Below are positions 29,590 through 45,888 of a DNA stretch of 64,000 nt, piece by piece; the stretch's first letter is position 1; each line of letters starts with the position of its first letter. The stretch covers positions 2,816,001-2,880,000 of the forward strand of contig OY782041.1 of the NCBI GenBank assembly GCA_963677595.1, written 5' to 3'. Under the pieces are notes generated by a model that saw nothing but the letters and a program-made list of their open reading frames with translations, did not search any database and was not told the origin of the DNA. Source of the DNA: Spirochaetia bacterium (GTDB lineage Bacteria > Spirochaetota > Spirochaetia > CAKZLE01). The position numbers and the translations under genes are program-made.

Positions 29590-30548
29590 GTCATCCATAC
29601 GAAGACTGTTGTCTCTGCCCCCATCGGTGCGGGGCCGACCGGAGCAGGGGAGAACTCGGGGTCTGCGGGGAGGGGACCGCTATGCGGATCGCTTTCGCGG
29701 GTATCCATCGGGGGGAAGAGCCTCCCATCAGTGTCCAGGGCGGGCAGTTTCGCGGTTCCGGCACGATCTTCTTCTCGGGCTGCACCCTCGGCTGTCGCGA
29801 CTGCCAGAACCTGCAGATCAGCTCGCAGGGGAGTAACCTGGGACGGGCGGTCACATATGAGGAGTTCGCCTCGATCTGCCTGTCTCTGCAGGAGCGGGGT
29901 GCTGCCAACATCAACCTCGTGACCGGCACGCAGTTCATCCCCTCGATCATCGAAGGGCTGGTGAGGGCGAAGACCCTCGGCCTTGACCTCCCGGTGGTCT
30001 GGAACACCTCCTCCTATGAATCAGCGGAGGGCCTGAAGCTGCTGTTCCCGTTCGTCGACATCTTCCTTGCCGACCTGAAGGCTTACGACGGGGATGCCTG
30101 CAGGCTCTTCTGCCGTGCTGGGAATTACCCAGCTGCCGCGAAGGAATCAATCATACGCATGGCGGCAGGCAATCCCCTTGTGTTTGACGGGGAGCGGCTG
30201 CTGGGCGGGGTGGTCTTCCGCCACCTGGTCATCCCCGGTGCACTGGAGAACACCAGGAGGGTGATGGACTGGTATGCTGCGCATCTTCAGGGCAAGTCCC
30301 TGCTCTCGGTGATGGTGCAGTACATGCCCATAGGGGATGCGCCGGCCTCCGACCGTGCAGTCACTGAAGACGAGTATGATGAGCTTCTCGATATCCTATC
30401 CGATGCGGGGATCGAGGAGGGCTTCCTCCAGGAACTCGAGGACGAGAGTCCATGGGTACCGGACTTCACGAGGGCAAACCCCTTCCCCCCTGAGTTCTGC
30501 GACCCCCTCTGGCACTATGCCTCGGGGCCGATTGATGTCCCCTCGTAG
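29586..30548 (+). CDS. Radical SAM protein, PflX-like
   Basis: CxxCPHRC N-terminus, HRGEEPPI, CTLGCRDCQN and RHLVIPG. Confidence 0.88.
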   Translation: MSHPYEDCCLCPHRCGADRSRGELGVCGEGTAMRIAFAGIHRGEEPPISVQGGQFRGSGTIFFSGCTLGCRDCQNLQISSQGSNLGRAVTYEEFASICLSLQERGAANINLVTGTQFIPSIIEGLVRAKTLGLDLPVVWNTSSYESAEGLKLLFPFVDIFLADLKAYDGDACRLFCRAGNYPAAAKESIIRMAAGNPLVFDGERLLGGVVFRHLVIPGALENTRRVMDWYAAHLQGKSLLSVMVQYMPIGDAPASDRAVTEDEYDELLDILSDAGIEEGFLQELEDESPWVPDFTRANPFPPEFCDPLWHYASGPIDVPS

Positions 30549-31213
30549 GCTTCCCGGTTGAGGATAGCCGTCATGTTCGCTATATTCCGTCCCTCTGCAG
30601 TGATGACCTCGAGGGAGAGCTCCGAACCGCGCTTCGCGGCGATGGGATCGAAGGGGACGTTCTTCCCGGGGACCCACTCGTCCCCGACCATCTCCCTGAA
30701 GGCAGCCCAGCCGATATGGTCGAGCGGCACGGCATCGGGATCGAGCTTGGGGTCTGCAGAGTAGACTTTCGCGATGTTCGACAGGTTGATCACACGGTCC
30801 GCGGAGAACCGCTCAGCCAGGACGACCGCGTCATTGTCGGTCGAGAATCCGGGCTTCCAGCCCGCGGCGATGAGCACGCGCCCGGTGAAGGAGAGCTCAG
30901 CTGTCGGGTCTGTCACCAGGGCATCGGTGCACCAGCCGGCAAATACTGCCCTGAGCAGGGTCCCGTTGAGGTGGGTGGCAGCGATGCCGATCCAGTCCTG
31001 GTCATGCGTGGAGGGCGTCTCCACGATCTCCCGGTAGGCCTGCTGGTAGCGTCGTGCCGGGGCTCCTCCCCCGGTGACCATGACGATCTTCCGGGCCTCA
31101 TCGGCCTGGAGGTAGGCGATGATCGCTTCCCTGAACTTCCGGATGAACGGGCTGTCTACCCCGTCCGGTACGATGATCGATCCCCCGAGGGAGAGTATGG
31201 TCACTTCTGGCAT
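30515..31213 (-). CDS. pyrH: UMP kinase (archaeal type)
   Basis: LSLGGS, TGGGAPAR, DWIGI, GWKPGFSTD and PFDP. Confidence 0.9.
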   Translation of the reverse strand: MPEVTILSLGGSIIVPDGVDSPFIRKFREAIIAYLQADEARKIVMVTGGGAPARRYQQAYREIVETPSTHDQDWIGIAATHLNGTLLRAVFAGWCTDALVTDPTAELSFTGRVLIAAGWKPGFSTDNDAVVLAERFSADRVINLSNIAKVYSADPKLDPDAVPLDHIGWAAFREMVGDEWVPGKNVPFDPIAAKRGSELSLEVITAEGRNIANMTAILNREAYEGTSIGPEA

Positions 31214-31243
31214 GGAGTGCCTCCTGGTTTGTATTTCCTCTCA

Positions 31244-31272
31244 AGCATACACACTTCACCCTGTTTTCTCAA
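31244..31272 (-). promoter_or_regulatory. pyrH promoter
   Basis: TTGAGA-17-TATGCT on the minus strand. Confidence 0.55.
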
Positions 31273-31314
31273 TCATCCTGATGGAGAAAAACAAGGTTCA
31301 GCAGCATGCAGTAT

Positions 31315-32229
31315 TCAGCGTGAGAAGGTGACCCGATCCCTCCCGTCCCGCTTGCTGCGGTACATGAGGGAGTCAGCCCGCTCGATGATGGAATCACGCG
31401 TGTCATCTCCCCTGACCATCGTGGCCCCGATGGAGATCGTTACACTGATCTGCCCCTCCTTATAGGGGAGTGATGATGCTGCGGTGAGGATCCTGAGCCG
31501 CTGTGCGGTACTGATGAGATGCTCCTCGGTGGTGTTCCTGATGATCCCGATGAACTCCTCGCCCCCGAATCGCCCGAAGAGGTCGAACGGCCTGCCGTTC
31601 GCTGACAGGGTGTTCGCGATGAGCCTCAGGACGCTGTCTCCGGCAAGGTGGCCGTAGGTGTCATTGACGCCCTTGAAATGGTCGATATCGAGGAAGATGA
31701 TGCCGAAGGGGACTGAGAACTTCCTGAACTCATTGATCCGGCAGTCGATCTCGTTCTCGATATAGGTCCTGTTCGCGAGCCGGGTGAGGGGATCGAGCAT
31801 GGCGAGCTGTTCGAGCTCCCTGATCCTGATCTCCTTCGCGGTCTGTTCCGAGATGTCGGTGAAGAGCTCTATGGCCTGGATGGCACTTTCCTTCTCCTCG
31901 AGGAGGGAGGTCCTGATCTGGACAGGGACCCGGTGCCCCTCCTTGTGGTGGAGGAAGACGCTGGCATCCCGCTGCTTCCGGTCGCAGATCGTGCTGCCGA
32001 GGGGGCAGTCCCCGGTGCAGAGGTTGGTCCCTTCCGCATCGACATGGACGAGGATGTTGTCAGAGCAGGACCTGCCGACGACCTCAGCGCTGCGGTAGCC
32101 GGTGATCCGTTCTGCCCCCTTGTTCCAGTAGATGATCCGCCTGTCGGCGTCGGTGATATAGATCCCGTCCTGGATCAGGTTCAGTACGGTAGCGAATCTT
32201 CCCTGATGAGTCTGTCTATGAGTTTCCAT
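31315..32229 (-). CDS. PAS-GGDEF diguanylate cyclase
   Basis: PAS (YWNKGAERITGY), DIDHFK, I-site RPFD and GGEEF. Confidence 0.92.
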   Translation of the reverse strand: METHRQTHQGRFATVLNLIQDGIYITDADRRIIYWNKGAERITGYRSAEVVGRSCSDNILVHVDAEGTNLCTGDCPLGSTICDRKQRDASVFLHHKEGHRVPVQIRTSLLEEKESAIQAIELFTDISEQTAKEIRIRELEQLAMLDPLTRLANRTYIENEIDCRINEFRKFSVPFGIIFLDIDHFKGVNDTYGHLAGDSVLRLIANTLSANGRPFDLFGRFGGEEFIGIIRNTTEEHLISTAQRLRILTAASSLPYKEGQISVTISIGATMVRGDDTRDSIIERADSLMYRSKRDGRDRVTFSR

Positions 32230-32371
32230 ACGGTAAGTATACCATAGAGATAGGCTATGATGCACGATATATCACATAGGAGTGAAGGTGTTTTATCAAT
32301 CACGACGCCGTTGATTTTTCAGCAAATATGCCCGATAATCAATCAAGACAAACCATGCAAACGGAGGCCCT

Positions 32372-32794
32372 ATGGGAGAGACGATCCGCTTCGGCGTATC
32401 CATGGACAGTGACCTCGTGGAACTGCTGGACCGGCTTACCCGTGAGGGGAACCATGACAACCGGTCGGAGACCCTGCGCACCCTCGTGCGCAATGAGATC
32501 ATCGCCAAGGGGATCGAGGATGATGACCGTGAGGTCATCGGCACGATGACGCTCCTCTACCACCACAAGACCCGCCTCCCGAGGGTCTCGATCGCCCCGT
32601 ACCCGTCAGTGAGCATCAAGGCGAACTTCCTCTTCCACGTGGAGGGCGAGATCTGCGCGAAGATCCTCATCATCAAGGGGACAGGCCGTGAGGTCCAGGC
32701 CTGGGCGAGGAAGCTGCTAAACAGCACGAACATCATCGGGAAGCTCAGTTTCACCGCCACGGATGAACTCTATCGGGAACTGGTCAAGTCCTGA
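32372..32794 (+). CDS. nikR: NikR-like ribbon-helix-helix regulator with a divergent metal site
   Basis: IRFGVSM and NRSE RHH; ACT-like GTMTLLYHH and HVEGEIC. Confidence 0.78.
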   Translation: MGETIRFGVSMDSDLVELLDRLTREGNHDNRSETLRTLVRNEIIAKGIEDDDREVIGTMTLLYHHKTRLPRVSIAPYPSVSIKANFLFHVEGEICAKILIIKGTGREVQAWARKLLNSTNIIGKLSFTATDELYRELVKS

Positions 32795-32835
32795 AACTGT
32801 ACAGGTAATTCCGACTGTTTCTCTCAGGCAGGGGA

Positions 32836-32901
32836 TTGACCCGCTGTTTTGGATCAGTGTATCCTGACAGAGTAACACGTAAAAATATAATCGTGTTACT
32901 C
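32836..32901 (+). promoter_or_regulatory. Promoter plus NikR-type operator
   Basis: TTGACC-18-TATCCT; GAGTAACACG-N12-CGTGTTACTC (32870-32901), equivalent to GTAACA-N16-TGTTAC. Confidence 0.8.
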
Positions 32902-32927
32902 ATATGGATCACAGATTGGAGAGAGTA

Positions 32928-34076
32928 ATGAGTTATCACCATGCACACAGACATTCTTTCAGGATCCCCCTGACGGGTATCCTCATCATCCTGGCACTCG
33001 TAGTCGGTACCGCGGGGCTCTTCGCGGCCCCGCAGCAGGAGGAGCTGGTACGGCAGGATTCAGTCACCGTGACTGACATGCGCGGACGGAGCGTGACGGT
33101 CCCCGGGACCGTTGACCGTATCATCGCCCTCGGGGCGGGATCGCTCAGACTGGTGAGCTACCTCGGTGCGGTCGACAAGGTCATCGCCGTCGAGGATGCC
33201 GGACACGGCAGGGAGATCACCGACTACAGCTTCTTCCCCCTGGCTACCTACCGGCTGGCAGAGCCGGGACTGCGGGACCTGCCCTCGATCGGCAGTGGTG
33301 AGAACCATGAGGGGATCATCGCAGCCGCTCCTGAGCTCATCATCTCCTCAGTCGTGGATGTCGCACAGCTCGATGCGCTGCAGGAGGTGCTCGGTATCCC
33401 GGTGTTCGCCGTTGATGTCGATGTGGAACTCTATGATACCGACCTCTTCTTCGGGCAGCTGGAGAGCTTGGGGAGCATCCTGGGTGCCGAAGAGCGGGCA
33501 GGGGAGCTGGTCTCGGGTATCAGTGCCGCCCTTGGTGATATAGCCTCCAGGGCTGCCGAGGTGGAGAGCCCGGTCCGTGCCTATGCAGGCGGGATGATGT
33601 TCTACGGGCCAGCTGACCTCCTCCGCACGACCGGGGACTATATCCCCTTCGACCTCACCGGGACTGCCAACGTGATGCCGACCAACCCCACGGGGAACCG
33701 GCAGCCCTACATGACTTCCCTCGAGGACCTCATCGCCGCTGCCCCGGAGTATGTCTTCATTGATGCGGCGAACCTCTTCCTGTCGAAGCAGGGGTTCTCT
33801 GACAATCGGGCCCTGCTCGAGGAGCAGGTCCCGGCCTTCAGGGACCGGGAGGTCTATGCTACCTTCGTCTACAAGTACTACGGGACCAACTGGGAGAACC
33901 AGCTGATCAACGTCTATGCAGCAGGGAAGGTCCTCTACCCCGATCTCTATGCTGATATCTCCATCCGCGACAAGGCAGAGGAGATCTGGGAACTCTTCTT
34001 CGGTACTCCCCTGGAGTATGAGACGGTCGTCGCCGGGCAGAAGGCCGGCTTCGGGCAGGTCGACTGGTTCAACTAG
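32928..34076 (+). CDS. FecB/BtuF-class ABC substrate-binding protein
   Basis: Signal peptide; VTDMRGRSVTVP..VDRIIALG; GKVLYPDLY. Confidence 0.88.
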   Translation: MSYHHAHRHSFRIPLTGILIILALVVGTAGLFAAPQQEELVRQDSVTVTDMRGRSVTVPGTVDRIIALGAGSLRLVSYLGAVDKVIAVEDAGHGREITDYSFFPLATYRLAEPGLRDLPSIGSGENHEGIIAAAPELIISSVVDVAQLDALQEVLGIPVFAVDVDVELYDTDLFFGQLESLGSILGAEERAGELVSGISAALGDIASRAAEVESPVRAYAGGMMFYGPADLLRTTGDYIPFDLTGTANVMPTNPTGNRQPYMTSLEDLIAAAPEYVFIDAANLFLSKQGFSDNRALLEEQVPAFRDREVYATFVYKYYGTNWENQLINVYAAGKVLYPDLYADISIRDKAEEIWELFFGTPLEYETVVAGQKAGFGQVDWFN

Positions 34077-35153
34077 ATGCGCGACGGTAACGTCACGGAC
34101 GTGAAGCTGGCTCCCGTCAGTTCGCTCTACCGGGGGTATGTCAGGAAGAAGACCCTCTTCCTTGCCGGCACGGCTGTGCTGCTCGGTATCCTGGTCATCG
34201 CCGCGACCTGTGCGGGGTCGATCAGGATCCCCTTCTCAGAGGTAGTCTCCTTTATCGTCCGGCTTGACCGGGTGGGGACGGGCAGGATCATCTGGGATGT
34301 GAGGATGCCGCGCATCATCGCAGCCCTCCTGGTAGGGGCGGGTCTCTCCCTGTCGGGGACCGTCATGCAGTCAGTACTCCGCAATCCGCTCGCGTCTCCC
34401 TATACCCTCGGTCTCTCGAGTGCCGCTGCCTTCGGGGCCTCGGTCGCCATCATCTTCTTCGGGGCAGGGACGAGCACGACCTCGACGATCATCATCAGCG
34501 ATTCGGTCACGGTCGCCTTCTCGGCGTTCTTCTTCGCTGCGGTGTCGACCGCAGCGATCCTGCTGCTCACTGTGCTCACGAAGATCTCGGCGGAGAGCAT
34601 GGTGCTCGCCGGTATCGCGATCGGGTCGATCTTCTCGGCAGGCCTCACGCTCATGCAGTACTTAGCCGACTCGATCCAACTTGCGAGTATCGTCTCCTGG
34701 ACCTTCGGTGACCTCGGCAGGGCGAACTGGCGTGTCATTCCGATCATCGCGCTGGCCCTGCTCCCTATCTTCCTCATCTGTTTCTACTACCGCTGGGATC
34801 TCAATGCCATGGATACCGGTGAAGACTCGGCGAGGGGGCTCGGGGTACGGACCGGAGCAGTCCGGATCATCGGGATGGTGGCCTCATCGATCCTCGCGGC
34901 GGTCATCGTCTCGTTCTTCGGCACGATCGCCTTCATCGGACTGCTCGGGCCCCATATAGCGAGGAGGCTCCTCGGGAGCGACCACCGCTTCCTCCTTACA
35001 GCCTCCCCGCTGATCGGGGCATTCATCCTCCTGGCGGCAGACACGGCCGCACGGACGATCCTCTCCCCGATGGTCCTCCCCGTCGGCATCCTGACCTCTC
35101 TGCTCGGGGGACCATTGTTCATCTACCTCCTCGCAGCCGGGAGGAGACGATGA
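34077..35153 (+). CDS. FecCD/BtuC-family permease
   Basis: RMPRIIAA, RNPLASPYTLG and FIGLLGPH. Confidence 0.92.
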   Translation: MRDGNVTDVKLAPVSSLYRGYVRKKTLFLAGTAVLLGILVIAATCAGSIRIPFSEVVSFIVRLDRVGTGRIIWDVRMPRIIAALLVGAGLSLSGTVMQSVLRNPLASPYTLGLSSAAAFGASVAIIFFGAGTSTTSTIIISDSVTVAFSAFFFAAVSTAAILLLTVLTKISAESMVLAGIAIGSIFSAGLTLMQYLADSIQLASIVSWTFGDLGRANWRVIPIIALALLPIFLICFYYRWDLNAMDTGEDSARGLGVRTGAVRIIGMVASSILAAVIVSFFGTIAFIGLLGPHIARRLLGSDHRFLLTASPLIGAFILLAADTAARTILSPMVLPVGILTSLLGGPLFIYLLAAGRRR

Positions 35154-35902
35154 TCCTTGAAGTCAAGGGGCTCGAGTTCGCCTACCGGAGCACGCCAGTG
35201 ATCGGTGATATAACCTTCAGCGTGGGGGAAGGGGAGATCCTTGCCATCCTCGGGCGTAACGGGGCCGGGAAGTCCACCCTCCTGAAGTGCCTCAACCATG
35301 TCCTTTCCCCGAAGGGAGGGACTGTTTCTGTGGACGGGTCCGATACTCGTTCCATGCGGCCGGCAGAGATCGCCCGGAAGATCGGCTGGGTCCCGCAGCA
35401 GGGTGAGGTGACGAGGATGAAGGTCTTTGACCTGATCCTGCTCGGCAGGAAACCCTATTTCCGCTGGGAGCCCTCACCGGAGGATTTCAGGAAGGTCGAG
35501 GAGGCTATTGGCCTGCTGGGGATCGAGGAGATAGCCCTGCGGTACGCAGATGAGCTCAGCGGCGGGGAGTTCCAGCTGGTCCAGATAGCCCGGGCCCTGG
35601 CCCAGGACCCGAGTGTGGTCCTCTTCGATGAACCGACGAGCAGCCTCGATATAAGGAACCAGCACCGGCTCATGGGGAGGCTGAAGGAGATCATCCACGG
35701 CACTCCCCGGGCAGCCGTCATGACGATGCATGACATCAATCTTGCCCTGCGGTATGCCGACAAGCTTCTCCTGCTCTCCGGCGGTACGGTATGTGCGGCC
35801 GGTACGGGGGATGCTATCACCGCTGACCACATCCGGGAGGTCTATGACATGGATGTCTCCCTCCTGGAGGCCGGGGGGTATCCTCTGGTGGTCCCCGTAT
35901 GA
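35150..35902 (+). CDS. FecE/BtuD-family ABC ATPase
   Basis: GRNGAGKS, LSGGE, DEPTSSLD and HDINLA. Confidence 0.92.
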   Translation: MILEVKGLEFAYRSTPVIGDITFSVGEGEILAILGRNGAGKSTLLKCLNHVLSPKGGTVSVDGSDTRSMRPAEIARKIGWVPQQGEVTRMKVFDLILLGRKPYFRWEPSPEDFRKVEEAIGLLGIEEIALRYADELSGGEFQLVQIARALAQDPSVVLFDEPTSSLDIRNQHRLMGRLKEIIHGTPRAAVMTMHDINLALRYADKLLLLSGGTVCAAGTGDAITADHIREVYDMDVSLLEAGGYPLVVPV

Positions 35903-36456
35903 TGCAGGGCCCTCTCAGGGATGCCGTGCTCAAGATCGTCGGCAGCATACTGGAGCGCTACCCCCTCTCAAGGCTCCCCGATATCTACAAGAGCTTCTTC
36001 CAGGACGAATTCGGCCCCGGGCACCTTCTCTCAGATCCCGGGAGGGCACGAGCGTATCTGGCAGAGGAACTGGGCAGCATGGTAAGCCGCGGCAGGAGGG
36101 CCGCAGAACCCTGCGGACTGGGGCTGCGCTTCTGCCGGCTGCCGCTTGACCTGGTGGCAGACGGGATCATACCCGAGGAGGCCTACTTCTCTGCCTTCGC
36201 AGCCTCCGCTGCCGCGTTCGGAATGCCTGATCCGGAGACCTGGAGAGAACGTTGGATGCTCATCGAGTCGGTCATCGCTGAGGAGTACCGTGGTCTGGAG
36301 GGGTTCGCTTGGGATTCGATGCGTATCAGGGAATCCCTCGGGAACGGGGTCAGCGCGATGGGCCACAGTGAAGTATACCGGAGGGCGTATGAGCCGCACT
36401 ACCGGGTATTCACCATCGAAGGGCAGCAGCTCTTCTCTAGCCAATGGGGTGTATGA
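35899..36456 (+). CDS. Conserved-looking hypothetical protein
   Basis: ATGA-coupled to the ATPase; motif-like DIYKSFFQDEFGPGH and HSEVYRRAYEPHYRV. Confidence 0.72.
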   Translation: MMQGPLRDAVLKIVGSILERYPLSRLPDIYKSFFQDEFGPGHLLSDPGRARAYLAEELGSMVSRGRRAAEPCGLGLRFCRLPLDLVADGIIPEEAYFSAFAASAAAFGMPDPETWRERWMLIESVIAEEYRGLEGFAWDSMRIRESLGNGVSAMGHSEVYRRAYEPHYRVFTIEGQQLFSSQWGV

Positions 36457-36498
36457 GATGGTACACTGCCTGCAATCTTTACTTGAACGGGGAATACT

Positions 36499-37086
36499 AT
36501 GCTGATACTGATAAGCGGCGGGAGCTGCGCAGGAAAGACCACCTTCTCAGCCGCGCTGCATGAAGCACTGAACCAGCACGGAGTACACTCCCTGGCTCTC
36601 TCCACCGACCTCTTCTACACCGACATCCCGGCAGGAGAGCCCCTTCGTGAACATGATTTCGATGCTGAACAGAGCGTGGATGCAGGACTCATGCACCGGA
36701 TCTGCTCCTCATATGAGAGTGGGATTTCTTCCTTCCCGGTCTTCGAGTTCCGGACCCATGCACGCAGCGGCATGCTGGAGGTCCCGCCGGTCCCGGTCCT
36801 GCTCCTCGAGGGGATCTTCGCCCTCTCGTTCCCTTCTATCACCGCCCTGCCGTCGCTGAAGATCTGTATCCGCACGGAGGCAGCCGAACGCTACCGGAGG
36901 CGGCATGAGTTCTACTCGCATACGCTCGGCCACACGGATGAGTTCATCGACTTCAAGTTCTACGAACAGGCAGAACCCTACTACCAGGCAAGCATCGCTC
37001 CCTGGGAGCACCGGGCTGACATCGTGCTCTCCGGGGAAGATGACTTCGGCCCCGGTATCGAGGATATCCTGCGGCGGTACTTCTGA
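36499..37086 (+). CDS. Uridine kinase/PRK-like P-loop kinase
   Basis: SGGSCAGKTT, STDLFY, LLLEGIFAL and IAPWEHRADI. Confidence 0.8.
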   Translation: MLILISGGSCAGKTTFSAALHEALNQHGVHSLALSTDLFYTDIPAGEPLREHDFDAEQSVDAGLMHRICSSYESGISSFPVFEFRTHARSGMLEVPPVPVLLLEGIFALSFPSITALPSLKICIRTEAAERYRRRHEFYSHTLGHTDEFIDFKFYEQAEPYYQASIAPWEHRADIVLSGEDDFGPGIEDILRRYF

Positions 37087-37303: not shown

Positions 37304-37621
37304 ATGAAGCAGGTGATTGGTAAGATCGTAGAGACAGAGAAAGAGGCAGACCGGATTCTCTCCGAGGCACGCGAGCAGGTTGCTGCGAAGCTGGCTGCTG
37401 CTGATGAGGAGGTAAGCCGGGATGTGCGCGCTGCCAGGGAGGAGGGCCGCAAACGGATCGCCGAGGAGATGCACCGCATCGACGAGGAGGAATCCGCCCG
37501 GGTGGAGAAGAGCCTCTCCTCGATCCCCGGTGCCGATACCGAAGATACGGAGCTCATCGAGACGCTCGCCCGTTCGGTCGTGGAACGCATCACCACGACC
37601 ATATTCGATACAGGCCTATGA
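37304..37621 (+). CDS. V/A-ATPase stalk subunit H/G
   Basis: Charged helix KIVETEKEADRILSEAR; first gene of the operon. Confidence 0.72.
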   Translation: MKQVIGKIVETEKEADRILSEAREQVAAKLAAADEEVSRDVRAAREEGRKRIAEEMHRIDEEESARVEKSLSSIPGADTEDTELIETLARSVVERITTTIFDTGL

Positions 37622-38745
37622 ACTCATCCCCCGTCAGCCGCTATGGCTTCATCAACGCGAAACTGCGGGCAAAGATCAGCTCGATCCTGCCCGACGAATT
37701 CCGGGACGGTCTCCTGCGGGCTCCGACCCTTGAGGACGTGTTCGCATTTCTGAACGAGAACGGGTTCTCCCGTCTTACGGAGGTCTATACGCGGACCGGG
37801 GACCTGCAATCAGTGGAGGCCGAGCTCTTCATCGGGCAGATCGAGCAGTACCGCGAAGTGGTCCGCAATACCGAAGGGTCCGTCCGGGACTTTAGCTCAG
37901 CCCTGACGGTGAAACTTGAGATCGAGAACCTCAAGAACCTGCTGCGGCTCTGGTACGGCAGCCGTATCAAGAAGCGGCCGATGGACCATCGCGTGGGCTA
38001 TATCTACAAGGAGAGGATCCTCCATGCCATCCCCTGGGATGCCCTGATCAATGCCGCCTCCCTTTCTGATATCGCGGAGGCTCTGGGAGACAGTCCCTAT
38101 CAGGCGGTCGTACAGCCGTATGTCGGGACTCCTGTGGAACAGGAAGGGATCTTCTTCCTTGAGACCTCCCTCGACCGGTTCTACTACCGCTTCCTCCTCG
38201 ATGAGGCCGCGAAGCTCCCGACGGCTGACCGCCGCACCGTGAAGAAGATCCTGACTGCCGAGATCGACCTGCAGAACCTGAGCTGGATCATCCGGTTCAG
38301 CCGGTTCTATGCCCTGACCCCGGAGGAGCTCACAGCCATCCTCCTGCCGGGAGGGTATCCCTTCAGCCGGGAAGAGATAGCCTCCATCCTCGCACGGGAG
38401 GGAGAACGGCCCGGGCAGGGTCCGGGGCCGGGGATCCCCCGTGAGGAGGGGAGCCATATCACACGGGCTGCCGGGCTCCTCTCCCGCCGCTACCCTGCAC
38501 TGCAGGCAGTGGCCGGTGGGGAGCGGGGAGGAAGTGCATCTGCCCGGGCGGCGATGTTCGAGCAGCTCCTCGACCAGGTACGGAGGAAGGAGTTCGTGAA
38601 GATCATCACCGGCTATCCTTTTACCATAGGGATCGTCCTGGTGTACTTCTTCCTCAGGAGCCGGGAGAGCCGGTTCCTGACTACTGTCTTCAATGGTAAA
38701 TTCTACGGTTGGGAGGGCAGCCGGATGAGGGAGTTCGCAGAATGA
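37618..38745 (+). CDS. ntpC: V/A-ATPase subunit C/d
   Basis: YGFINAKLRA and EIDLQNLSWIIR. Confidence 0.85.
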   Translation: MNSSPVSRYGFINAKLRAKISSILPDEFRDGLLRAPTLEDVFAFLNENGFSRLTEVYTRTGDLQSVEAELFIGQIEQYREVVRNTEGSVRDFSSALTVKLEIENLKNLLRLWYGSRIKKRPMDHRVGYIYKERILHAIPWDALINAASLSDIAEALGDSPYQAVVQPYVGTPVEQEGIFFLETSLDRFYYRFLLDEAAKLPTADRRTVKKILTAEIDLQNLSWIIRFSRFYALTPEELTAILLPGGYPFSREEIASILAREGERPGQGPGPGIPREEGSHITRAAGLLSRRYPALQAVAGGERGGSASARAAMFEQLLDQVRRKEFVKIITGYPFTIGIVLVYFFLRSRESRFLTTVFNGKFYGWEGSRMREFAE

Positions 38746-40718
38746 GAATGTTCACTTCGAAGATGAGAATGCTGACTGCCGTGGTCCTCGAGGAAGATGC
38801 GGACCGGGTCACCCGTGAACTGCTGAAGCAGGGGGTGCTCGATTTCGTACAGATCAGCAGCCTCTCCGATGTCGATACCGAGTATATAAGGCCGCATCAG
38901 GCTGACGGACTGAGGAACCGGCTCTCCGAGCTGCGCCGTCGTATCGAGGGCTACTACCAGCAGGGCGGCCTGCCCCTGCCGGTGACGGATCGACTCGATG
39001 TCTCACAGCTCAAACACGCTACGATGGAGTCGTATGAGCGGGAGCTCTCCCGTATGGATGAGAAGATCCATGAGATCAGGGAGCGACAGCGGAGGACGAA
39101 CCAGGAGATCCTGAAACTGCAGGAGCTCGAACGCTACCTCGGCGGCTCGTCCCAGAAGGGCGGCGGTGAGTTCCTGGCTGTCTATACCGGTGAGGTCGGC
39201 CGGGGGACCCTGGCCGATCTCGAGAGGCGTATGGAGGGGATGCCCTGCTTCCTGACCGAGACCGGAGACGGGACTGCAGTACTGGTGACCCTGAAGCGGG
39301 ACCAGGGGACCGTTGCGGAACTCCTGGAGAAGTTCCAGTGGGTCGAGCACCAGGGGAAGGTCAACGGGAGCGGTGCTGCTGATCTCCTGAAGGAACTCGG
39401 GCAGAAGATCGCAAGCCTGAAGGACCTCCAGCACTCCGGCAGCGATGACATGAGACGGGAGGTCTCAGGGCAGAAGGATGCCCTCGATGCCCTCTGGGCC
39501 AACCTGCGGATGCATGAGCTCTATACCGTGATACAGGAGTACTTCTCCCATACCCAGCGGACCACGCTCTTCTCTGGATGGATCCCGGCCTCTGCGGCTG
39601 GTTCCCTGGAGACGGGCATTCGCACTGCTGCCAACTCACGCTGCGTGGTGGAGTTCTCGGAAGCGGAGGAGTTCCCCCGGGAGAAGGTCCCGGTCCAGGT
39701 GGAGACGCCGAAGGTCATGGAACCCTTCAGGATGCTCGTCGATAACTATGCCACCCCTGAATACGGCTCGGTGAACCCGACCCCCTTCGTGGCTGCAGCC
39801 TACCTGATCATGTTCGGCCTGATGTTCGGTGATGCAGGGCAGGGGCTGGTGATCGCCCTTATCGGCCTGCTCGGCAGGCGGTTCTGGAAAGGCGCGAGCG
39901 CGGGTGTGCGTAAGCTCCTGCAGCTCTTCATCTACTGCGGGGCGGCCTCGGTCGTGACCGGGGTGCTCTTCGGCTCCTACTTCGGCTTCCAGCTATTCCC
40001 CCCGCTCTGGTTCGACTATCATGGGATCATCCTCGGGCATGAGGGCGGGGGCATGATCACCGATGTCTATGACATCCTGAGGATCACCATCATCTTCGGC
40101 ATCAGCGTCATCGCCCTAGGGCTTGTCCTGAACTGGGTCAACCTGATCCGCAAGAGGCAGTGGTTCCTGCTCCTGCTCGACAAGGCAGGGCTGCTTGGCG
40201 GCTGGTTCTATGGCTGCGGCGTCTATACCGCCTTCTATTTCGTGGGGCATGCCTACAAGAGCCTGCCCCCGGGACTGTTCATCCCCCTTGCCTTCGGCAT
40301 CCCCGTGGTACTGCTGCTCTTCAAGGGGCCGCTGCACCACTACCTGCAGCACGGGAAGCAGGGAGGTTTCTCCCTCTTCACCCTGATCGACTTCTTCATG
40401 GAGTGGGTCGTGGAGCTGCTGGAGATCTTCTCCGGCTACCTTGCAAACACCCTCTCATTCATGCGGGTCGCGGGACTCGGGATCGCCCATGTGAGCCTCA
40501 TGGCAGCGTTCGCATCCATCGCCGCCATGACAGGGAATGACGGCAGGACGATCGGCGGGATCATCATCCTCATACTGGGGAATGTCCTGGTCATCGCACT
40601 TGAGGGTCTCTCTGCCGGGATACAGGCGCTGAGGCTCAATTACTATGAGTTCTTTTCCAAGTACTTCACCGGTGTCGGGGTGGCTTACAACCCCGTATCG
40701 CTGAGGCCGAAGGAATAG
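38742..40718 (+). CDS. ntpI: V/A-ATPase subunit I/a
   Basis: FGLMFGDAGQG, NTLSFMRV and QALRLNYYEFF. Confidence 0.93.
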   Translation: MRMFTSKMRMLTAVVLEEDADRVTRELLKQGVLDFVQISSLSDVDTEYIRPHQADGLRNRLSELRRRIEGYYQQGGLPLPVTDRLDVSQLKHATMESYERELSRMDEKIHEIRERQRRTNQEILKLQELERYLGGSSQKGGGEFLAVYTGEVGRGTLADLERRMEGMPCFLTETGDGTAVLVTLKRDQGTVAELLEKFQWVEHQGKVNGSGAADLLKELGQKIASLKDLQHSGSDDMRREVSGQKDALDALWANLRMHELYTVIQEYFSHTQRTTLFSGWIPASAAGSLETGIRTAANSRCVVEFSEAEEFPREKVPVQVETPKVMEPFRMLVDNYATPEYGSVNPTPFVAAAYLIMFGLMFGDAGQGLVIALIGLLGRRFWKGASAGVRKLLQLFIYCGAASVVTGVLFGSYFGFQLFPPLWFDYHGIILGHEGGGMITDVYDILRITIIFGISVIALGLVLNWVNLIRKRQWFLLLLDKAGLLGGWFYGCGVYTAFYFVGHAYKSLPPGLFIPLAFGIPVVLLLFKGPLHHYLQHGKQGGFSLFTLIDFFMEWVVELLEIFSGYLANTLSFMRVAGLGIAHVSLMAAFASIAAMTGNDGRTIGGIIILILGNVLVIALEGLSAGIQALRLNYYEFFSKYFTGVGVAYNPVSLRPKE

Positions 40719-40754
40719 AGATAGATAATCGTACACCATCAGGAGGATGAGTAT

Positions 40755-41111
40755 ATGACAGCAAGAATGTTTAGTCGAAGAGTCGTTATGAGCCTGGTCG
40801 TGACCCTGCTGCTGCTGGTGGTCATCGGCGGGGCATCTCCCTTGTTCGCTGCCTCGGCTGATACCACAACCACGGCAGTGACCACCGCTGCCAATGACAG
40901 CCTGAAATGGGGTCTCATCGCCGCGGCAGTAGCCTTCGGCCTGGGTGCCATCGGGGCGGGGATCGCCATCGCCAATGTCGGTGCGGCAGCCATGGGAGCC
41001 ATCGGAGAGAAGCCGGAGATCGCCTCCCAGGCACTGATCTTCATCGCGCTTGCGGAAGGTCTCGTGGTCTTCGGTTTCATCACGGCACTGATGATCCTCG
41101 GCAAGGTGTGA
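40755..41111 (+). CDS. ntpK: V/A-ATPase subunit K/c (single hairpin)
   Basis: Gly-rich hairpin, EKPE loop and ALAEG. Confidence 0.92.
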   Translation: MTARMFSRRVVMSLVVTLLLLVVIGGASPLFAASADTTTTAVTTAANDSLKWGLIAAAVAFGLGAIGAGIAIANVGAAAMGAIGEKPEIASQALIFIALAEGLVVFGFITALMILGKV

Positions 41112-41114
41112 GGC

Positions 41115-41423
41115 ATGACCTACTTCGTCATCGGTGATGAGGATACTGTGCTCGGCTTCGAGCTGGTCGGTATACCCGGTGCACGGGCTGCCGATCCTGA
41201 AGAGGCGCAGGCAGCATTCGGGAAGGCACTGGCTGCCGGTACGACCGGCATCATCGTCATCACCGAGACGGCGGCGGACATGATCCGCCCCCTCGTGGAC
41301 CGGTATCTCTTTACCGCCACATTCCCCCTGATCGTCGAGATCCCTGGTCCCGATGCCTCAGGGAAGAAGAAACGGGACCTGCGCGCCCTGGTGAACCAGG
41401 CGATCGGGATCAAATTGGGATGA
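41115..41423 (+). CDS. ntpF: V/A-ATPase subunit F
   Basis: VIGDEDTVLGFELVG and PLIVEIP. Confidence 0.92.
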   Translation: MTYFVIGDEDTVLGFELVGIPGARAADPEEAQAAFGKALAAGTTGIIVITETAADMIRPLVDRYLFTATFPLIVEIPGPDASGKKKRDLRALVNQAIGIKLG

Positions 41424-41430
41424 GTGTTTG

Positions 41431-42039
41431 ATGGAAGATAACAGACTGCTGACTGGAATAATCGAGGATGCACGGAACGAAGCAGAGAAGCTCCTGGCAC
41501 AGGCTGAGGAGCAGGTGAAGCAGCGTCTTCAGGCAGGGAAGGGCCGTATCGCCTCCCTCCAGGATGAGGACGAGCGCAAGATCGCGGCACACCGGGAGGC
41601 CGTCAGGCGGAGGAGTGATTCACTGATCTCCTCCCAGCGGCGCCGAATGGCACTGGAGCGGCGGGAAGTGCTCACCCGCAGGGTGCTCTCCCGGGCGGCA
41701 GAGCTGCTCCGGGAGGAGATGGACGGGCCTGGGTACCCGGAGTTCCTCTCCAGATGCATCGCAGAGGGGATCATCGGCGTGGACCGGGACGAGGTGGCAG
41801 TCAGCTGCTCTCACCGGGAGGAACTCACCCCGGGGATCCTCTCCGCGGCAGTCGAGCTGGTGCGTGAGGAGACCGGCAGGGAGGTCAGCGTGAAGGCATC
41901 AGGCATTGTGCTGGCAGACCAGGGTGTGGTCGTCTCATCAGCGGACGGGAGGGTCTCGTTCAACAACCAGGCAGCTGCCAGGTTCAGGCGGTACGACCAG
42001 GAGATCAAGGAGATCATCGCAAAGGCGGGACTAGTATGA
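41431..42039 (+). CDS. ntpE: V/A-ATPase subunit E
   Basis: N-terminal coil; GVVV..DGRVSFNN; operon position. Confidence 0.85.
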   Translation: MEDNRLLTGIIEDARNEAEKLLAQAEEQVKQRLQAGKGRIASLQDEDERKIAAHREAVRRRSDSLISSQRRRMALERREVLTRRVLSRAAELLREEMDGPGYPEFLSRCIAEGIIGVDRDEVAVSCSHREELTPGILSAAVELVREETGREVSVKASGIVLADQGVVVSSADGRVSFNNQAAARFRRYDQEIKEIIAKAGLV

Positions 42040-43817
42040 TAGGGCAGGAACTGAATACCGTGATCGGCACGATCAAGCGGGTGAACGGTCCGGTGATCGA
42101 AGTGAAGGGGATCACCGGGGCCATGATGATGGAACTCGTCAGGATCGGGGAAGGCCGGCTTGTCGGTGAGCTGATCAAACTGGAGGGCAGCCAGGCTGTC
42201 GTCCAGGTCTATGAGGATACCACCGGCATCGCCCCGGGAGACAACGTCTACGGGAGTGGTATGCCCCTTTCGGTGGAACTCGGCCCGGGACTGATCGGGA
42301 CCATCTATGACGGCATTCAGCGGCCGCTCGAGGAGCTGCTTGCCGCAAGCGGTGAGTTCATCGAGAAGGGGATCACCCGGCCGGGACTCAACCGTGAGAA
42401 GAAGTGGGCCTTCACCCCGACAGTCGATGCGGGAACAGAGGTCTCCGGAGGAGCGTTCCTCGGGACCGTCCAGGAGACCGAGCGGGTCGAGCATCGGATC
42501 ATGGTTCCCCCTGAGACCAGCGGGAAGGTCAGCTTCATCGCCGGGAAGGGAGAGTACACCGTCAACGACGTGATCGCCCGGATCGATGGGAGCAGGGGGG
42601 AGGTCCCCCTGACCATGATGCAGCGCTGGTCGATCAGGAAGCCGAGGCCGGTGAAGGAGCGCAAGCCCCTGCGCATCCCCCTGGTCACCGGACAGCGGGT
42701 GATCGATACGCTCTTTCCCCTCGCAAAGGGGGGGACGGTCGCCATACCAGGAGGGTTCGGCACCGGGAAGACCATGACCCAGCATGCCATCGCGAAGTGG
42801 TGCGATGCTGATATCATCGTCTATATCGGCTGCGGCGAGCGGGGCAACGAGATGACTGACGTCCTGCAGGAGTTTCCCCACCTCATCGACCCCCGTACCG
42901 GGGCATCGCTGATGGAGCGGACCATCCTCATCGCCAACACCTCCAATATGCCGGTCTCGGCAAGGGAGGCCTCCATCTACACCGGGGTCACCCTCGCGGA
43001 GTACTACCGCGACCAGGGTTATCATGTGGCGGTCATGGCCGATTCGACCAGCCGCTGGGCTGAGGCCCTGCGGGAGCTCTCCGGACGGATGGAGGAGATG
43101 CCGGCCGAGGAGGGGTTCCCGGCCTATCTCCCGACGAGAGTGGCCGAGTTCTACGAACGTGCCGGCTATATGCAGACCCTTGCCGGTGATGAGGGATCGG
43201 TGACGATCATCGGGGCGGTATCGCCCCCGGGCGGTGACTTCTCCGAACCGGTGACCCAGCATACCAAGCGGTTCGTCCGCTGTTTCTGGGGGCTTGACAG
43301 GCAGCTTGCCAATGCCAGGCACTACCCCGCGATCAGCTGGCTCGAATCCTACAGCGAGTACCTCGGCGACATCACTCCGTGGTGGACCGGTGAGGTCGGG
43401 GATGACTGGCCAGAGCTCCGCTCCGAGATGATGGAGCTGCTCCAGAAGGAGGTGCGGCTGCAGCAGGTGGTGAAGCTCGTCGGGCCGGATGCCCTGCCTG
43501 ACAGCCAGCGATTCATCATCGAGGTATGTACCCTCTTCAAGAACGCCTTCCTCCAGCAGAATGCCTTCGACGACATCGACCGGTATTCGACCAGCCAGAA
43601 ACAGGCGAGGATGCTCCAGATCATCATGACCTACTGGACCCGCGGGGCTGAAGCCATCAAGCGGGGGGCCACCGTGCTGAAGCTGAGACACCTCAAGGTG
43701 GTGCAGGATATCACGAAGATGAAGTTCAACATCTCGAACGATGACCTGAAGGGCCTCGATAAGCTGCAGGCACGTCTGGAGCGGTCCATGGACCAGCTGG
43801 GAGAGATCTATGAGTGA
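42036..43817 (+). CDS. ntpA: V/A-ATPase subunit A
   Basis: [17 protein letters not shown] and DSTSRWAEA; no intein. Confidence 0.97.
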
Positions 43818-45234
43818 ACAGAGACCCATGGGGAGTTTGGAGAAGAAGCTGCTGTCCGGCAGGGAGTATGTCGGGCTGAACAAGATCGAGGGCCCGCTCA
43901 TCTTCGTGCGGAACACCCACCCGGTGGGCTATCGCGAACTGGTGGAGTGCGAGGACCGGGACGGTCGTCTCCGGATGGGGATGGTGCTCGACACCTCGGA
44001 CGACACGGTCGTGGTGCAGATCTTCGACGGGACCTCGGGGCTCACCATGCCGGAGACGAAGACCCGGTTCATGGGCGAGCCGCTGACCCTCGGGGTATCG
44101 GAAGCGATGCTCGGGCGGGTCTTCAACGGGCTGGGCAAGCCGATCGACGGTGGGGGCGATGTCCCTTCAGAGGAGCGGATGGACGTGAACGGCCGTCCCA
44201 TCAACCCCACCGCACGGGAATACCCGCGGGATTTCATCCAGACCGGCATCTCGATCATCGACGGCATGACTACCCTGATCAGGGGCCAGAAGCTCCCGAT
44301 CTTCTCCGGGAACGGGCTGCCGCATAACGAGCTGGCTGCTCAGATCGCCCGGCAGGCGAAGATCAAGGGAGCCGGGGAGGATGGGGGCGACTTCTGCGTC
44401 GTCTTCGCGGCAATGGGCGTCAAGCATGACGTGGCCCGCTTCTTCATCGACAGCTTCGAGGAGACCGGGGTGCTGAATAACGTGGCGCTCTTCCTCTCCC
44501 TTGCTGATGATCCCTCCATCGAGAGGATCATCACGCCCCGTACCGCCTTGACGCTGGCGGAACACCTTGCCTTCAACAAGGGCAAGCACGTGCTGGTGAT
44601 CCTGACCGACCTGACCAACTACTGCGAGTCCCTTCGCGAGATCAGTACCCTCAGGGGGGAGATCCCCAGCAGGAAGGGGTACCCGGGCTACCTCTACTCA
44701 GACTTAGCCGAGCTCTATGAGCGCTCGGGCATGCTCAAGGGGTTCAAGGGCTCGATCACGCAGCTCCCGATCCTTACCATGCCAAATGATGACATCAGCC
44801 ACCCGATCCCCGACCTGACCGGGTATATCACGGAGGGGCAGATCGTCTTCGAACGGGAGATGTACGGGCGCGGGATCTATCCCCCTGTCGCGGGACTCCC
44901 CAGCCTGAGCCGCCTCATGAAGGACGGCATCGGGGAGGGCATGACCCGGGAGGATCATCCGCACCTGTCCAACCAGCTCTTTGCCTGCTACAGCTATGTG
45001 AAGGATGTGCGGAACCTGGCATCTGTCATCGGCGAGGAGGAGCTCACCCCCCTCGACCACCAGTACCTGGAGTTCGGGGAGTTCTTCGAACGGAACTTCG
45101 TCACCCAGGGATCGCATGACGACAGGACCATCGAGGAGACCCTGGACCTTGGCTGGAAAGCCCTCAGCCTGCTGCCGCAGGAGGAGCTCCACCGGGTGAC
45201 CGAGGACGAACTCGATGAGTACTACGGAAGGTAG
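43810..45234 (+). CDS. ntpB: V/A-ATPase subunit B
   Basis: [16 protein letters not shown] and [14 protein letters not shown]. Confidence 0.97.
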
Positions 45235-45240
45235 GGACCG

Positions 45241-45888
45241 ATGCGGAAGAACGTAGCGCCGACCAGGTCGAACCTCCTGAAGCTCAAGGATGAGCTGAAG
45301 TTCGCGAAGCTCGGGTATGAGCTCCTCGACCAGAAGCGGAACATCCTGATCATCGAGCTGCTGACCCTCGTCGACCAGGCAGTGGACTACCAGAGCCGGG
45401 TGGAGGAGACCCTCGCAGGAGCCTACGGCAGCCTCCAGGGTGCCGTCATGGCGATGGGGAAGCTCAAGGTGGGGAACCTCTCAGGGGCGGTTAACATCGA
45501 CACGTCCATCGTCCTGAAGGAACGGCGCGTCATGGGCGTCAGGCTGCCGAAGGTAGAGACTGCCTTCGAGGAGCGTGGTCCCTACTTCAGCCCCCTCGAT
45601 ACCAGCTTCCAGGTGGAGGATGCACTCGAGAACTTCAAGGAGGCGCTGAAGATGATGGGACGCCTTGCGGAACTGAAGGTCTCCATCATGCGACTGGCCC
45701 AGGAGGCGAAGAAGACCATCAGGAAGGTGAACGCCCTGGAGAAGATCGCCATCCCGGACCTGGAAGAGACCCTTACCTACACGACCGGGCGTCTTGAGGA
45801 GGCTGAACGGGAGAGTTTCCTGCTGATGAAACAGGTGAAGAATCGTCTTGATAAGAAGAAGGAGAGAGTTCATGAACAGTCCTTTTAA
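45241..45888 (+). CDS. ntpD: V/A-ATPase subunit D
   Basis: PTRSNLL, GYELLDQKR and KVNALE. Confidence 0.95.
   Translation: MRKNVAPTRSNLLKLKDELKFAKLGYELLDQKRNILIIELLTLVDQAVDYQSRVEETLAGAYGSLQGAVMAMGKLKVGNLSGAVNIDTSIVLKERRVMGVRLPKVETAFEERGPYFSPLDTSFQVEDALENFKEALKMMGRLAELKVSIMRLAQEAKKTIRKVNALEKIAIPDLEETLTYTTGRLEEAERESFLLMKQVKNRLDKKKERVHEQSF

Follow-up and report, generated by a model that had tools for sequence, protein, structure and literature searches.

The subject of this study is a six-gene locus at positions 32372-37086 of the window, i.e., of the whole 64,000-nucleotide stretch analysed, which belongs to contig OY782041.1 of a Spirochaetia bacterium (host genome 4.33 Mb, one contig, 95.4% complete). 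All six genes lie on the + strand and encode, in this order, a NikR-like regulator, a binding protein, a permease, an ATPase, a conserved protein without a described family (hereafter U) and a kinase. The regulator, its operator, the binding protein, the permease and the ATPase co-occur repeatedly across Spirochaetia loci and form the core of what is here called the module.

Several described systems resemble parts of this locus. NikR repressors (E. coli, 1q5v; P. horikoshii type, 2bj1; H. pylori; PRK04460) have in common with the regulator the ribbon-helix-helix (RHH) plus ACT-like architecture and the half-site spacing; the regulator differs from canonical NikR in lacking H76 and H87, in a helix three residues shorter, in a variable C95 and in the newly invariant N85, K97 and W111, and most of the genomes with a regulator of its type show neither LarC nor HypD. 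NiuBDE of Helicobacter (CeuE/FecDE; 4LS3) likewise combines a class III binding protein and a FecCD permease with NikR-type control, according to the portion of PMC5140060 available, so the transporter class of the module is not surprising in itself. The regulator of NiuBDE is, however, a canonical NikR, the module binding protein has 15-16% identity to it in the fold match, and neither urease nor hydrogenase, which NiuBDE serves, was found in the module genomes tested. BtuFCD-like vitamin importers are of the same transporter class and follow the same logic, in that the cell acquires an organometallic cofactor in its final form and feedback controls the uptake, whereas the module scores below the BtuC and BtuD cut-offs, has a protein repressor and has a nickel-pincer cofactor as its predicted cargo. 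The known counterparts of the predicted client enzymes are the LarA system and NphT, whose cofactor the cell synthesises itself with LarB, LarE and LarC, with no mention of an uptake route in the accessible parts of the two papers (PMC11770544, PMC13524815); word searches of the available text of these and of PMC13510736 found no account of cofactor uptake. Nor was there any account of salvage or uptake of this cofactor, or of a NikR without nickel ligands, in the literature searched, which consisted mainly of open-access papers without supplements.

The module is real and conserved and is an undescribed form of a known class of importer; the cargo predicted for it is specific and can be tested. 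It has a conserved gene set, a conserved operator and a regulator that has lost part of its nickel site, and it resides in a genome with client enzymes of the LarA and DUF362 kind in which no LarB, LarC, LarE or other tested nickel user was detected. From these observations we infer the ligand of the binding protein, the role of U and the effector of the regulator: with moderate confidence, the module is predicted to supply LarA and DUF362 proteins, under feedback repression, with a nickel-pincer cofactor (NPMN or a near derivative) that is imported in finished form. All features that the initial annotation of this DNA had reported lie where it had placed them.

32311-32339, + strand: candidate sigma-70-type promoter of the regulator gene (9/12 consensus match)
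32372-32794, + strand: NikR-family repressor with a degenerate metal site (RHH_1 and a weak NikR_C match, PDB alignments, family conservation)
32836-32891, + strand: two overlapping promoter candidates of the transporter (32836-32865, 9/12; 32864-32891, 11/12)
32870-32901: operator, a perfect inverted repeat with core GTAACAC-N14-GTGTTAC (repeat search, conservation, published consensus)
32904-34076, + strand: class III (FecB/BtuF-like) binding protein of a separate clade (PF01497; fold match 2ETV)
34077-35153, + strand: FecCD-family permease (PF01032, E 1.5e-86)
35150-35902, + strand: ATP-binding cassette (ABC) ATPase, ATGA-coupled to the permease (PF00005)
35899-36456, + strand: U (60 homologues, alignment, structure model, neighbourhoods)
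36499-37086, + strand: kinase of the uridine-kinase/PRK family, a lineage-specific extra paralogue (PF00485, E 5.5e-14; PDB uridine kinases, E 1e-15)

ATGA overlaps join the permease to the ATPase and the ATPase to U, and the kinase starts 42 bp 3' of the end of U; the coupling to U and the 42-bp gap are as initially read. The regulator had been described as a divergent NikR, which holds for its sequence; as to orientation, it shares the strand of the transporter.

Regulator and operator

The regulator has the fold of the NikR family, with RHH_1 over its cut-off, NikR_C at 19.5 bits (cut-off 22; annotated in most homologues) and an alignment to 2bj1 at E 1e-14, and its DNA-binding strand is Arg-Gly-Ser. 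It scores below every NCBIfam NikR cut-off and is the sole NikR-like gene detected in the genome. Alignment to E. coli NikR (1q5v) confirmed that, of the canonical nickel-sensing residues (which we take to be H76', H87, H89 and C95 in E. coli numbering), only the equivalents of H89 and C95 are retained; H76 and H87 are gone, and the helix bearing H76 is shortened by a deletion of three residues. Across 70 homologues four residues never vary (N85, H89, K97 and W111); at position 87, 67 of them have Q and none has H, and C95 is kept in 55. Judged by its sequence, the regulator belongs to a subfamily of its own and is not a decayed gene. The locus has the palindromic operator typical of a canonical nickel-sensing NikR; the regulator has lost the ligands H76 and H87.

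The operator had been read as GTAACA-N16-TGTTAC and likened to the E. coli NikR site. That site is real, with arms longer than first stated (10 bp, 32870-32879 and 32892-32901, perfect, around a 12-bp spacer), and the signal published for NikR of Desulfotalea psychrophila fits it more exactly: the core is identical to that consensus, GTAACAC-N13/14-GTGTTAC, read in reverse (PMC545781, as given in the part of the paper seen). As in NikR-type operators, it is a palindrome with 13-14 bp between 7-bp half-sites and lies over a candidate target promoter, overlapping both sigma-70-like candidates of the transporter. The -10 hexamer of candidate 32836-32865 recurs in relatives, many of which have a TATCCT-like hexamer about 7 bp 5' of the operator. 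Since perfect 10-bp repeats with a 12-bp spacer number 59 genome-wide, i.e., the repeat type itself is common, the case for the operator rests on its conservation: of 30 distinct regions that precede orthologous binding-protein genes, 27 contained the site pattern (expectation from shuffles, 0.01), the pattern having been derived from those same 30 regions, our own locus among them. No second copy within 4 mismatches at the same spacing was found in the 4.33-Mb genome, and the strict version of the site occurs once, so that the regulon appears to be this operon; a wider regulon was rejected on this count.

In a second branch of degenerate NikR proteins (39-47% identity) this operator precedes the regulator gene itself, and the operon goes on with an unrelated importer of the ABC-3/ZnuA-like kind (loci L281:5098-7959, L282:4908-7691, L283:4286-7463, L280:4791-7508 and L009:8172-10920; L numbers are our locus labels). 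In this branch the operator was seen in L281, L282, L283 and metagenome loci, and the operon is often inserted before a thiamine ABC operon. LarC was found in 0 of the 7 genomes of our class sample (described below) that were scored to this branch.

Importer, client enzymes and cofactor genes

The siderophore/B12 class first assigned to the transporter was borne out: Peripla_BP_2, a FecCD permease and an ABC_tran ATPase form one operon, and the binding protein has the class III fold. A named family did not emerge, all matches to BtuFCD, FhuBCD, FecBCDE, HmuTUV and F420-0 lying below the NCBIfam equivalog cut-offs and the permease scoring below those of BtuC, FhuB, FecC/D and F420-0. The likelier start of the binding protein is an in-frame ATG at 32928 that is preceded by a GGAGAG ribosome site. 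Its closest structure is TM0189 of Thermotoga maritima (2ETV; sequence E 1e-47, TM-score 0.87, 35% identity), for which no ligand is reported in the literature searched; the next fold matches are MolA-, YiuA- and CeuE-type proteins.

The nearest clade consists of spirochaete sister importers (29-35% identity) in 22 genomes, 18 of them with LarC; TrmO/FmdE was present in 20 of 21 sister loci and larC-larE-larB in 11 of 21, and this clade may well supply nickel for cofactor synthesis. In a quick tree, which was midpoint-rooted so that no direction of descent is claimed, the module binding proteins group apart from these as a clade of their own with a very long stem (SH-aLRT 100). A His conserved in 14 of 16 sister proteins is Ala in all 12 module proteins, which have gained His101, His135, Arg241 and Lys324 (12/12 each), and the module operon is without FmdE/TrmO or lar genes. 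The remodelled residue set would fit a change of ligand. The full sister operon (L201-L208, L219, L220, L190) comprises a class III importer, a TrmO-FmdE fusion, larC, larE and larB; its regulator is usually a divergent DeoR-family gene and not NikR. In L190 it stands back to back with the module.

The host genome has eight Lar_N matches, one of which aligns with L. plantarum LarA at E 8e-117 including the active-site motifs, and three strong DUF362 matches. Lactate racemase is encoded intact in this genome, along with other proteins of the LarA and DUF362 kind. LarB, LarC and LarE gave no match over cut-off in this genome, and HypD, urease and carbon monoxide dehydrogenase (CODH) were not found either (urease and CODH were looked for in five genomes), which leaves free nickel without a detected user. 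Since LarA requires a nickel-pincer cofactor built by LarB, LarE and LarC (PMC13524815, accessible text), nickel ion alone would not serve it; DUF362 and LarA are placed in the same Pfam clan by the available part of PMC11770544. The combination expected of a cofactor-importing host, LarA-clan clients without LarB, LarC and LarE, is thus present in this genome and, as judged by LarC alone, in 10 of 14 module genomes.

The 14 module genomes belong to a class sample of 251 Spirochaetia genomes, which are kin and mostly metagenome-assembled, so that p values overstate and an absence means "not found". The 14 genomes with a binding protein of at least 60% identity had LarA in 13, DUF362 in 14, LarC in 4 and HypD in 1. 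A NikR-like match was present in 47 genomes, 24 with a canonical and 20 with a degenerate site (three truncated or differently degenerate cases were excluded); LarC or HypD was found in 24/24 of the former vs 4/20 of the latter. LarA or DUF362 was present in 19/20 degenerate-NikR genomes vs 166/251 overall. Thirteen further spirochaete genomes with U and the module, at least one of which overlaps the class sample, contained LarA in 12, DUF362 in 13, LarC in 0 and HypD in 1 (four loci duplicating class-sample genomes excluded; completeness not given). LarC was not found in 68 of the 121 LarA-bearing genomes sampled, which raises the question of a cofactor source for their enzymes.

The same data bear on a reading that we consider unlikely, namely that the module takes up nickel chelates in the manner of Helicobacter NiuBDE or the FmdE-linked sister, with a regulator that senses nickel through a rebuilt site and with some other nickel user, e.g., glyoxalase, acireductone dioxygenase or an insertion route that does not need LarC. 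In its favour, NikR-controlled nickel importers of the FecBCD type have been described (PMC5140060), the nearest transporter clade lies within larCEB operons, the operator is the same as a NikR signal already published, H89 never varies while C95 is widely kept, and four module genomes do have LarC. Against this, 16 of the 20 degenerate-NikR genomes lack both LarC and HypD, of which each canonical-NikR genome has at least one; LarB and LarE were also not found in the host, so nickel alone would be insufficient for cofactor synthesis; the binding protein has lost the sister His; and the module operon has neither FmdE nor TrmO.

Protein U and the kinase

U had no match in Pfam and NCBIfam scans, and its structure model (pLDDT 93) had none in Foldseek at E 0.001 and no clear one by VIA (best Z 4.3, with a root-mean-square deviation of 3.7 over 89 aligned), in line with its first description as uncharacterised. 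All matches in the Atlas search were under 0.9. Its invariant residues are D28, K31, Q35, H42, E57, R80, H156, S157, Y168 and R169. The ATPase lies directly upstream of U in all 17 spirochaete loci among the 80 U loci, which upholds the proposed tie between U and the transporter. When 13 loci were picked by the binding protein instead, U followed the ATPase in 4, the contig ended in 2 and U was absent in 7, which makes it accessory. We predict U to be a cofactor carrier or processing protein.

In Bacteroidales, U adjoins a DUF362 lipoprotein (29/80 loci, many of which come from close kin). This DUF362 retains His175/Lys185/His201 at the spacing of what we take to be LarA His174/Lys184/His200 and has a 56%-identical counterpart in the host genome. 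Fifty U-bearing genomes hand-picked from the 80 loci had DUF362 in 48 and LarC in 1. The host's counterpart of the Bacteroidales DUF362 neighbour (L173:1213-2280) is of the exported type and is followed by an ArsP-family permease.

Bacteroidales U proteins usually have an N-terminal signal-like extension. One Prevotella locus (L045:197-3175) contains, in order, a nikR whose product is differently degenerate (H87/H89 lost, H76 and C95 kept), a similar operator, U and a TonB-dependent receptor; another has TM1506, U, a TonB receptor and an ECF-like S protein. A Subdoligranulum (Bacillota) record has a 373-aa fusion of U with a P-loop kinase, followed by an ECF S-component (L221:5989-7878). This fusion, for which the initial annotation had asked, exists as a single record (1 of 72,556 plasmid records), and its kinase is not detectably similar to that of the window (E 0.16). 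A search for fusions with the U alignment among proteins of 407-2000 aa found nothing, those of 325-406 aa being outside the homologue and fusion searches; as fusions of 533 and 1162 aa turned up in the loci, that search was insensitive. A viral-contig scan with the U-kinase fusion protein also found nothing. In other fusions, all from Bacteroidales, the partner of U is DUF3810, a large glycoside-hydrolase-like protein or an ABM domain (L043:8966-10567, L076:7037-10525, L071:9914-10879, L067), and in environmental Bacteroidales U stands immediately 5' of a glycyl-radical enzyme and its activase (L015, L016, L020, L021, L023, L026, L028, L032).

The kinase belongs to the uridine-kinase superfamily by its PF00485 and PDB matches but stays below the udk equivalogs (66 vs 220 bits for TIGR00235, 70 vs 180 bits for PRK05480), and the genome has other uridine-kinase-like genes, including a separate housekeeping-like paralogue. 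It was present in 0/169 related loci and 0/33 further loci, and no orthologue was found in four close relatives. It was accordingly rejected as a core member of the module, and its initial placing as a fixed fifth member did not hold. A scan for a terminator between U and the kinase, which is a weak test, found nothing. In this lineage the kinase might re-phosphorylate a riboside form of the cofactor; this is the weakest step of the proposed mechanism, and we regard it as doubtful.

Predicted cargo, possible parallel routes and neighbouring genes

If the nickel-pincer cofactor is imported ready-made, the binding protein would capture cofactor released by producer microbes, the permease and ATPase would import it, and U, where present, would bind, protect or trim it and deliver it to apo-enzymes. 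The regulator would sense the cofactor, possibly via H89 at the open nickel position together with N85, Q87, K97 and W111, and would repress the operon when the cofactor is bound. In vitro, apo NphT can accept the free cofactor (PMC13524815).

Several points weigh against cofactor import. All of its support is genomic context and the ligand is putative; cofactor use by DUF362 is itself unproven; and the free nickel-pincer cofactor is labile and often covalently tethered, so that its availability is uncertain. Client-bearing genomes without LarC number 16/20 with this regulator type vs 82/146, a marginal difference (p 0.053), and among LarA genomes lack of LarC is not enriched for the module (9/13 vs 59/108, p 0.39). 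LarC is present in 4 of the 14 module genomes, three of the four class-sample U loci sit in LarC-positive genomes, and no larA adjoins the module in the loci read. The regulator or the module occurs in just 16 of the 98 client-bearing genomes without LarC. Adding TM1506, chosen as a marker for parallel routes, raises this coverage to 60/98, and in LarA genomes TM1506 or a degenerate regulator was found in 50/68 without LarC vs 19/53 with LarC; however, of the 85 genomes that have neither LarA nor DUF362, 24 carry TM1506 as well, among them 19/19 of one family.

TM1506 was for this reason rejected as a marker specific to LarA/DUF362, and it is absent from the host genome. It is fused to the ATPase of a second-branch degenerate-NikR operon and lies beside larC in one genome. 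TM1506 genes are reported to neighbour those for TonB receptors, aldo-keto reductases and a 5TM protein (PMC3239186), and some aldo-keto reductases use the nickel-pincer cofactor (PMC13524815, text available). Spirochaete TM1506 (DUF1893) is fused to or adjoins an ABC ATPase (L283:4778-5875, L231:781-1800, L233:1408-2475, L294). In the 19 small genomes of the one family it is present and LarA, DUF362 and LarC were not seen (L287-L293, L295-L297).

A wider proposal, which we put forward tentatively, is that anaerobic communities share the nickel-pincer cofactor as a vitamin and that auxotrophs import it by several unrelated routes: through the FecBCD importer, through the ABC-3/ZnuA-like importer that goes with TM1506, in Bacteroidales through TonB receptors and in Bacillota through an ECF S-component. 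One subfamily of NikR would then have been rebuilt to sense the cofactor and not the ion, and U would be a carrier of undescribed fold that also serves DUF362.

That the cargo is something else (cobamide, heme, siderophore, Mo/W or a pyridine compound) and that the link to LarA/DUF362 merely reflects large fermentative genomes seems improbable to us. Class III importers take many ligands, LarA or DUF362 is common in the class (166/251), the enrichment for absent LarC is weak, and U also has unrelated partners, fused or adjacent (DUF3810, ABM, glycyl-radical operons). Yet several separate gene links converge on one cofactor, namely that of the sister clade to larCEB, that of U to DUF362, the fusion of TM1506 to the ATPase of a second operon governed by this regulator type, and the adjacency of TM1506 and larC in one genome; and no component scores over a B12, heme or siderophore family cut-off. 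Import of a nickel-free precursor (P2TMN, P2CMN or a riboside) finished by U and the kinase, with U as an unrecognised nickel insertase or maturase, is very improbable: U has invariant His/Asp/Glu/Tyr residues, is almost confined to LarC-negative genomes among the 50 tested and is fused to a kinase once, but it follows the ATPase in only 4 of the 13 binding-protein loci (contig edge in two more), LarC is present in three of those four genomes, and no importer of nickel that would feed such a route was identified.

For the nickel-pincer cofactor the evidence argues over F430, cobamides and heme, which the initial annotation had listed as candidate ligands; its broader proposal, import of a metal-organic compound under a retuned NikR at a conserved operator, with U tied to the transporter, is supported, and not as regards a fixed kinase. 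With the module come a binding protein that can be purified, a regulon of a single site and an easy test by complementation. If cofactor import is true, a nickel cofactor joins the cross-fed vitamins, a metal sensor has been retuned to an organometallic ligand, and the module becomes a genomic marker for further nickel-pincer enzymes, DUF362 first, where larC-anchored searches would miss them.

The genes on either side of the locus are ordinary ones, recognised by sequence alone.

30515-32265, - strand: amino-acid-kinase-family (UMP kinase-like) and PAS-GGDEF genes, upstream
37304-45888: apparent V/A-type ATPase operon, downstream

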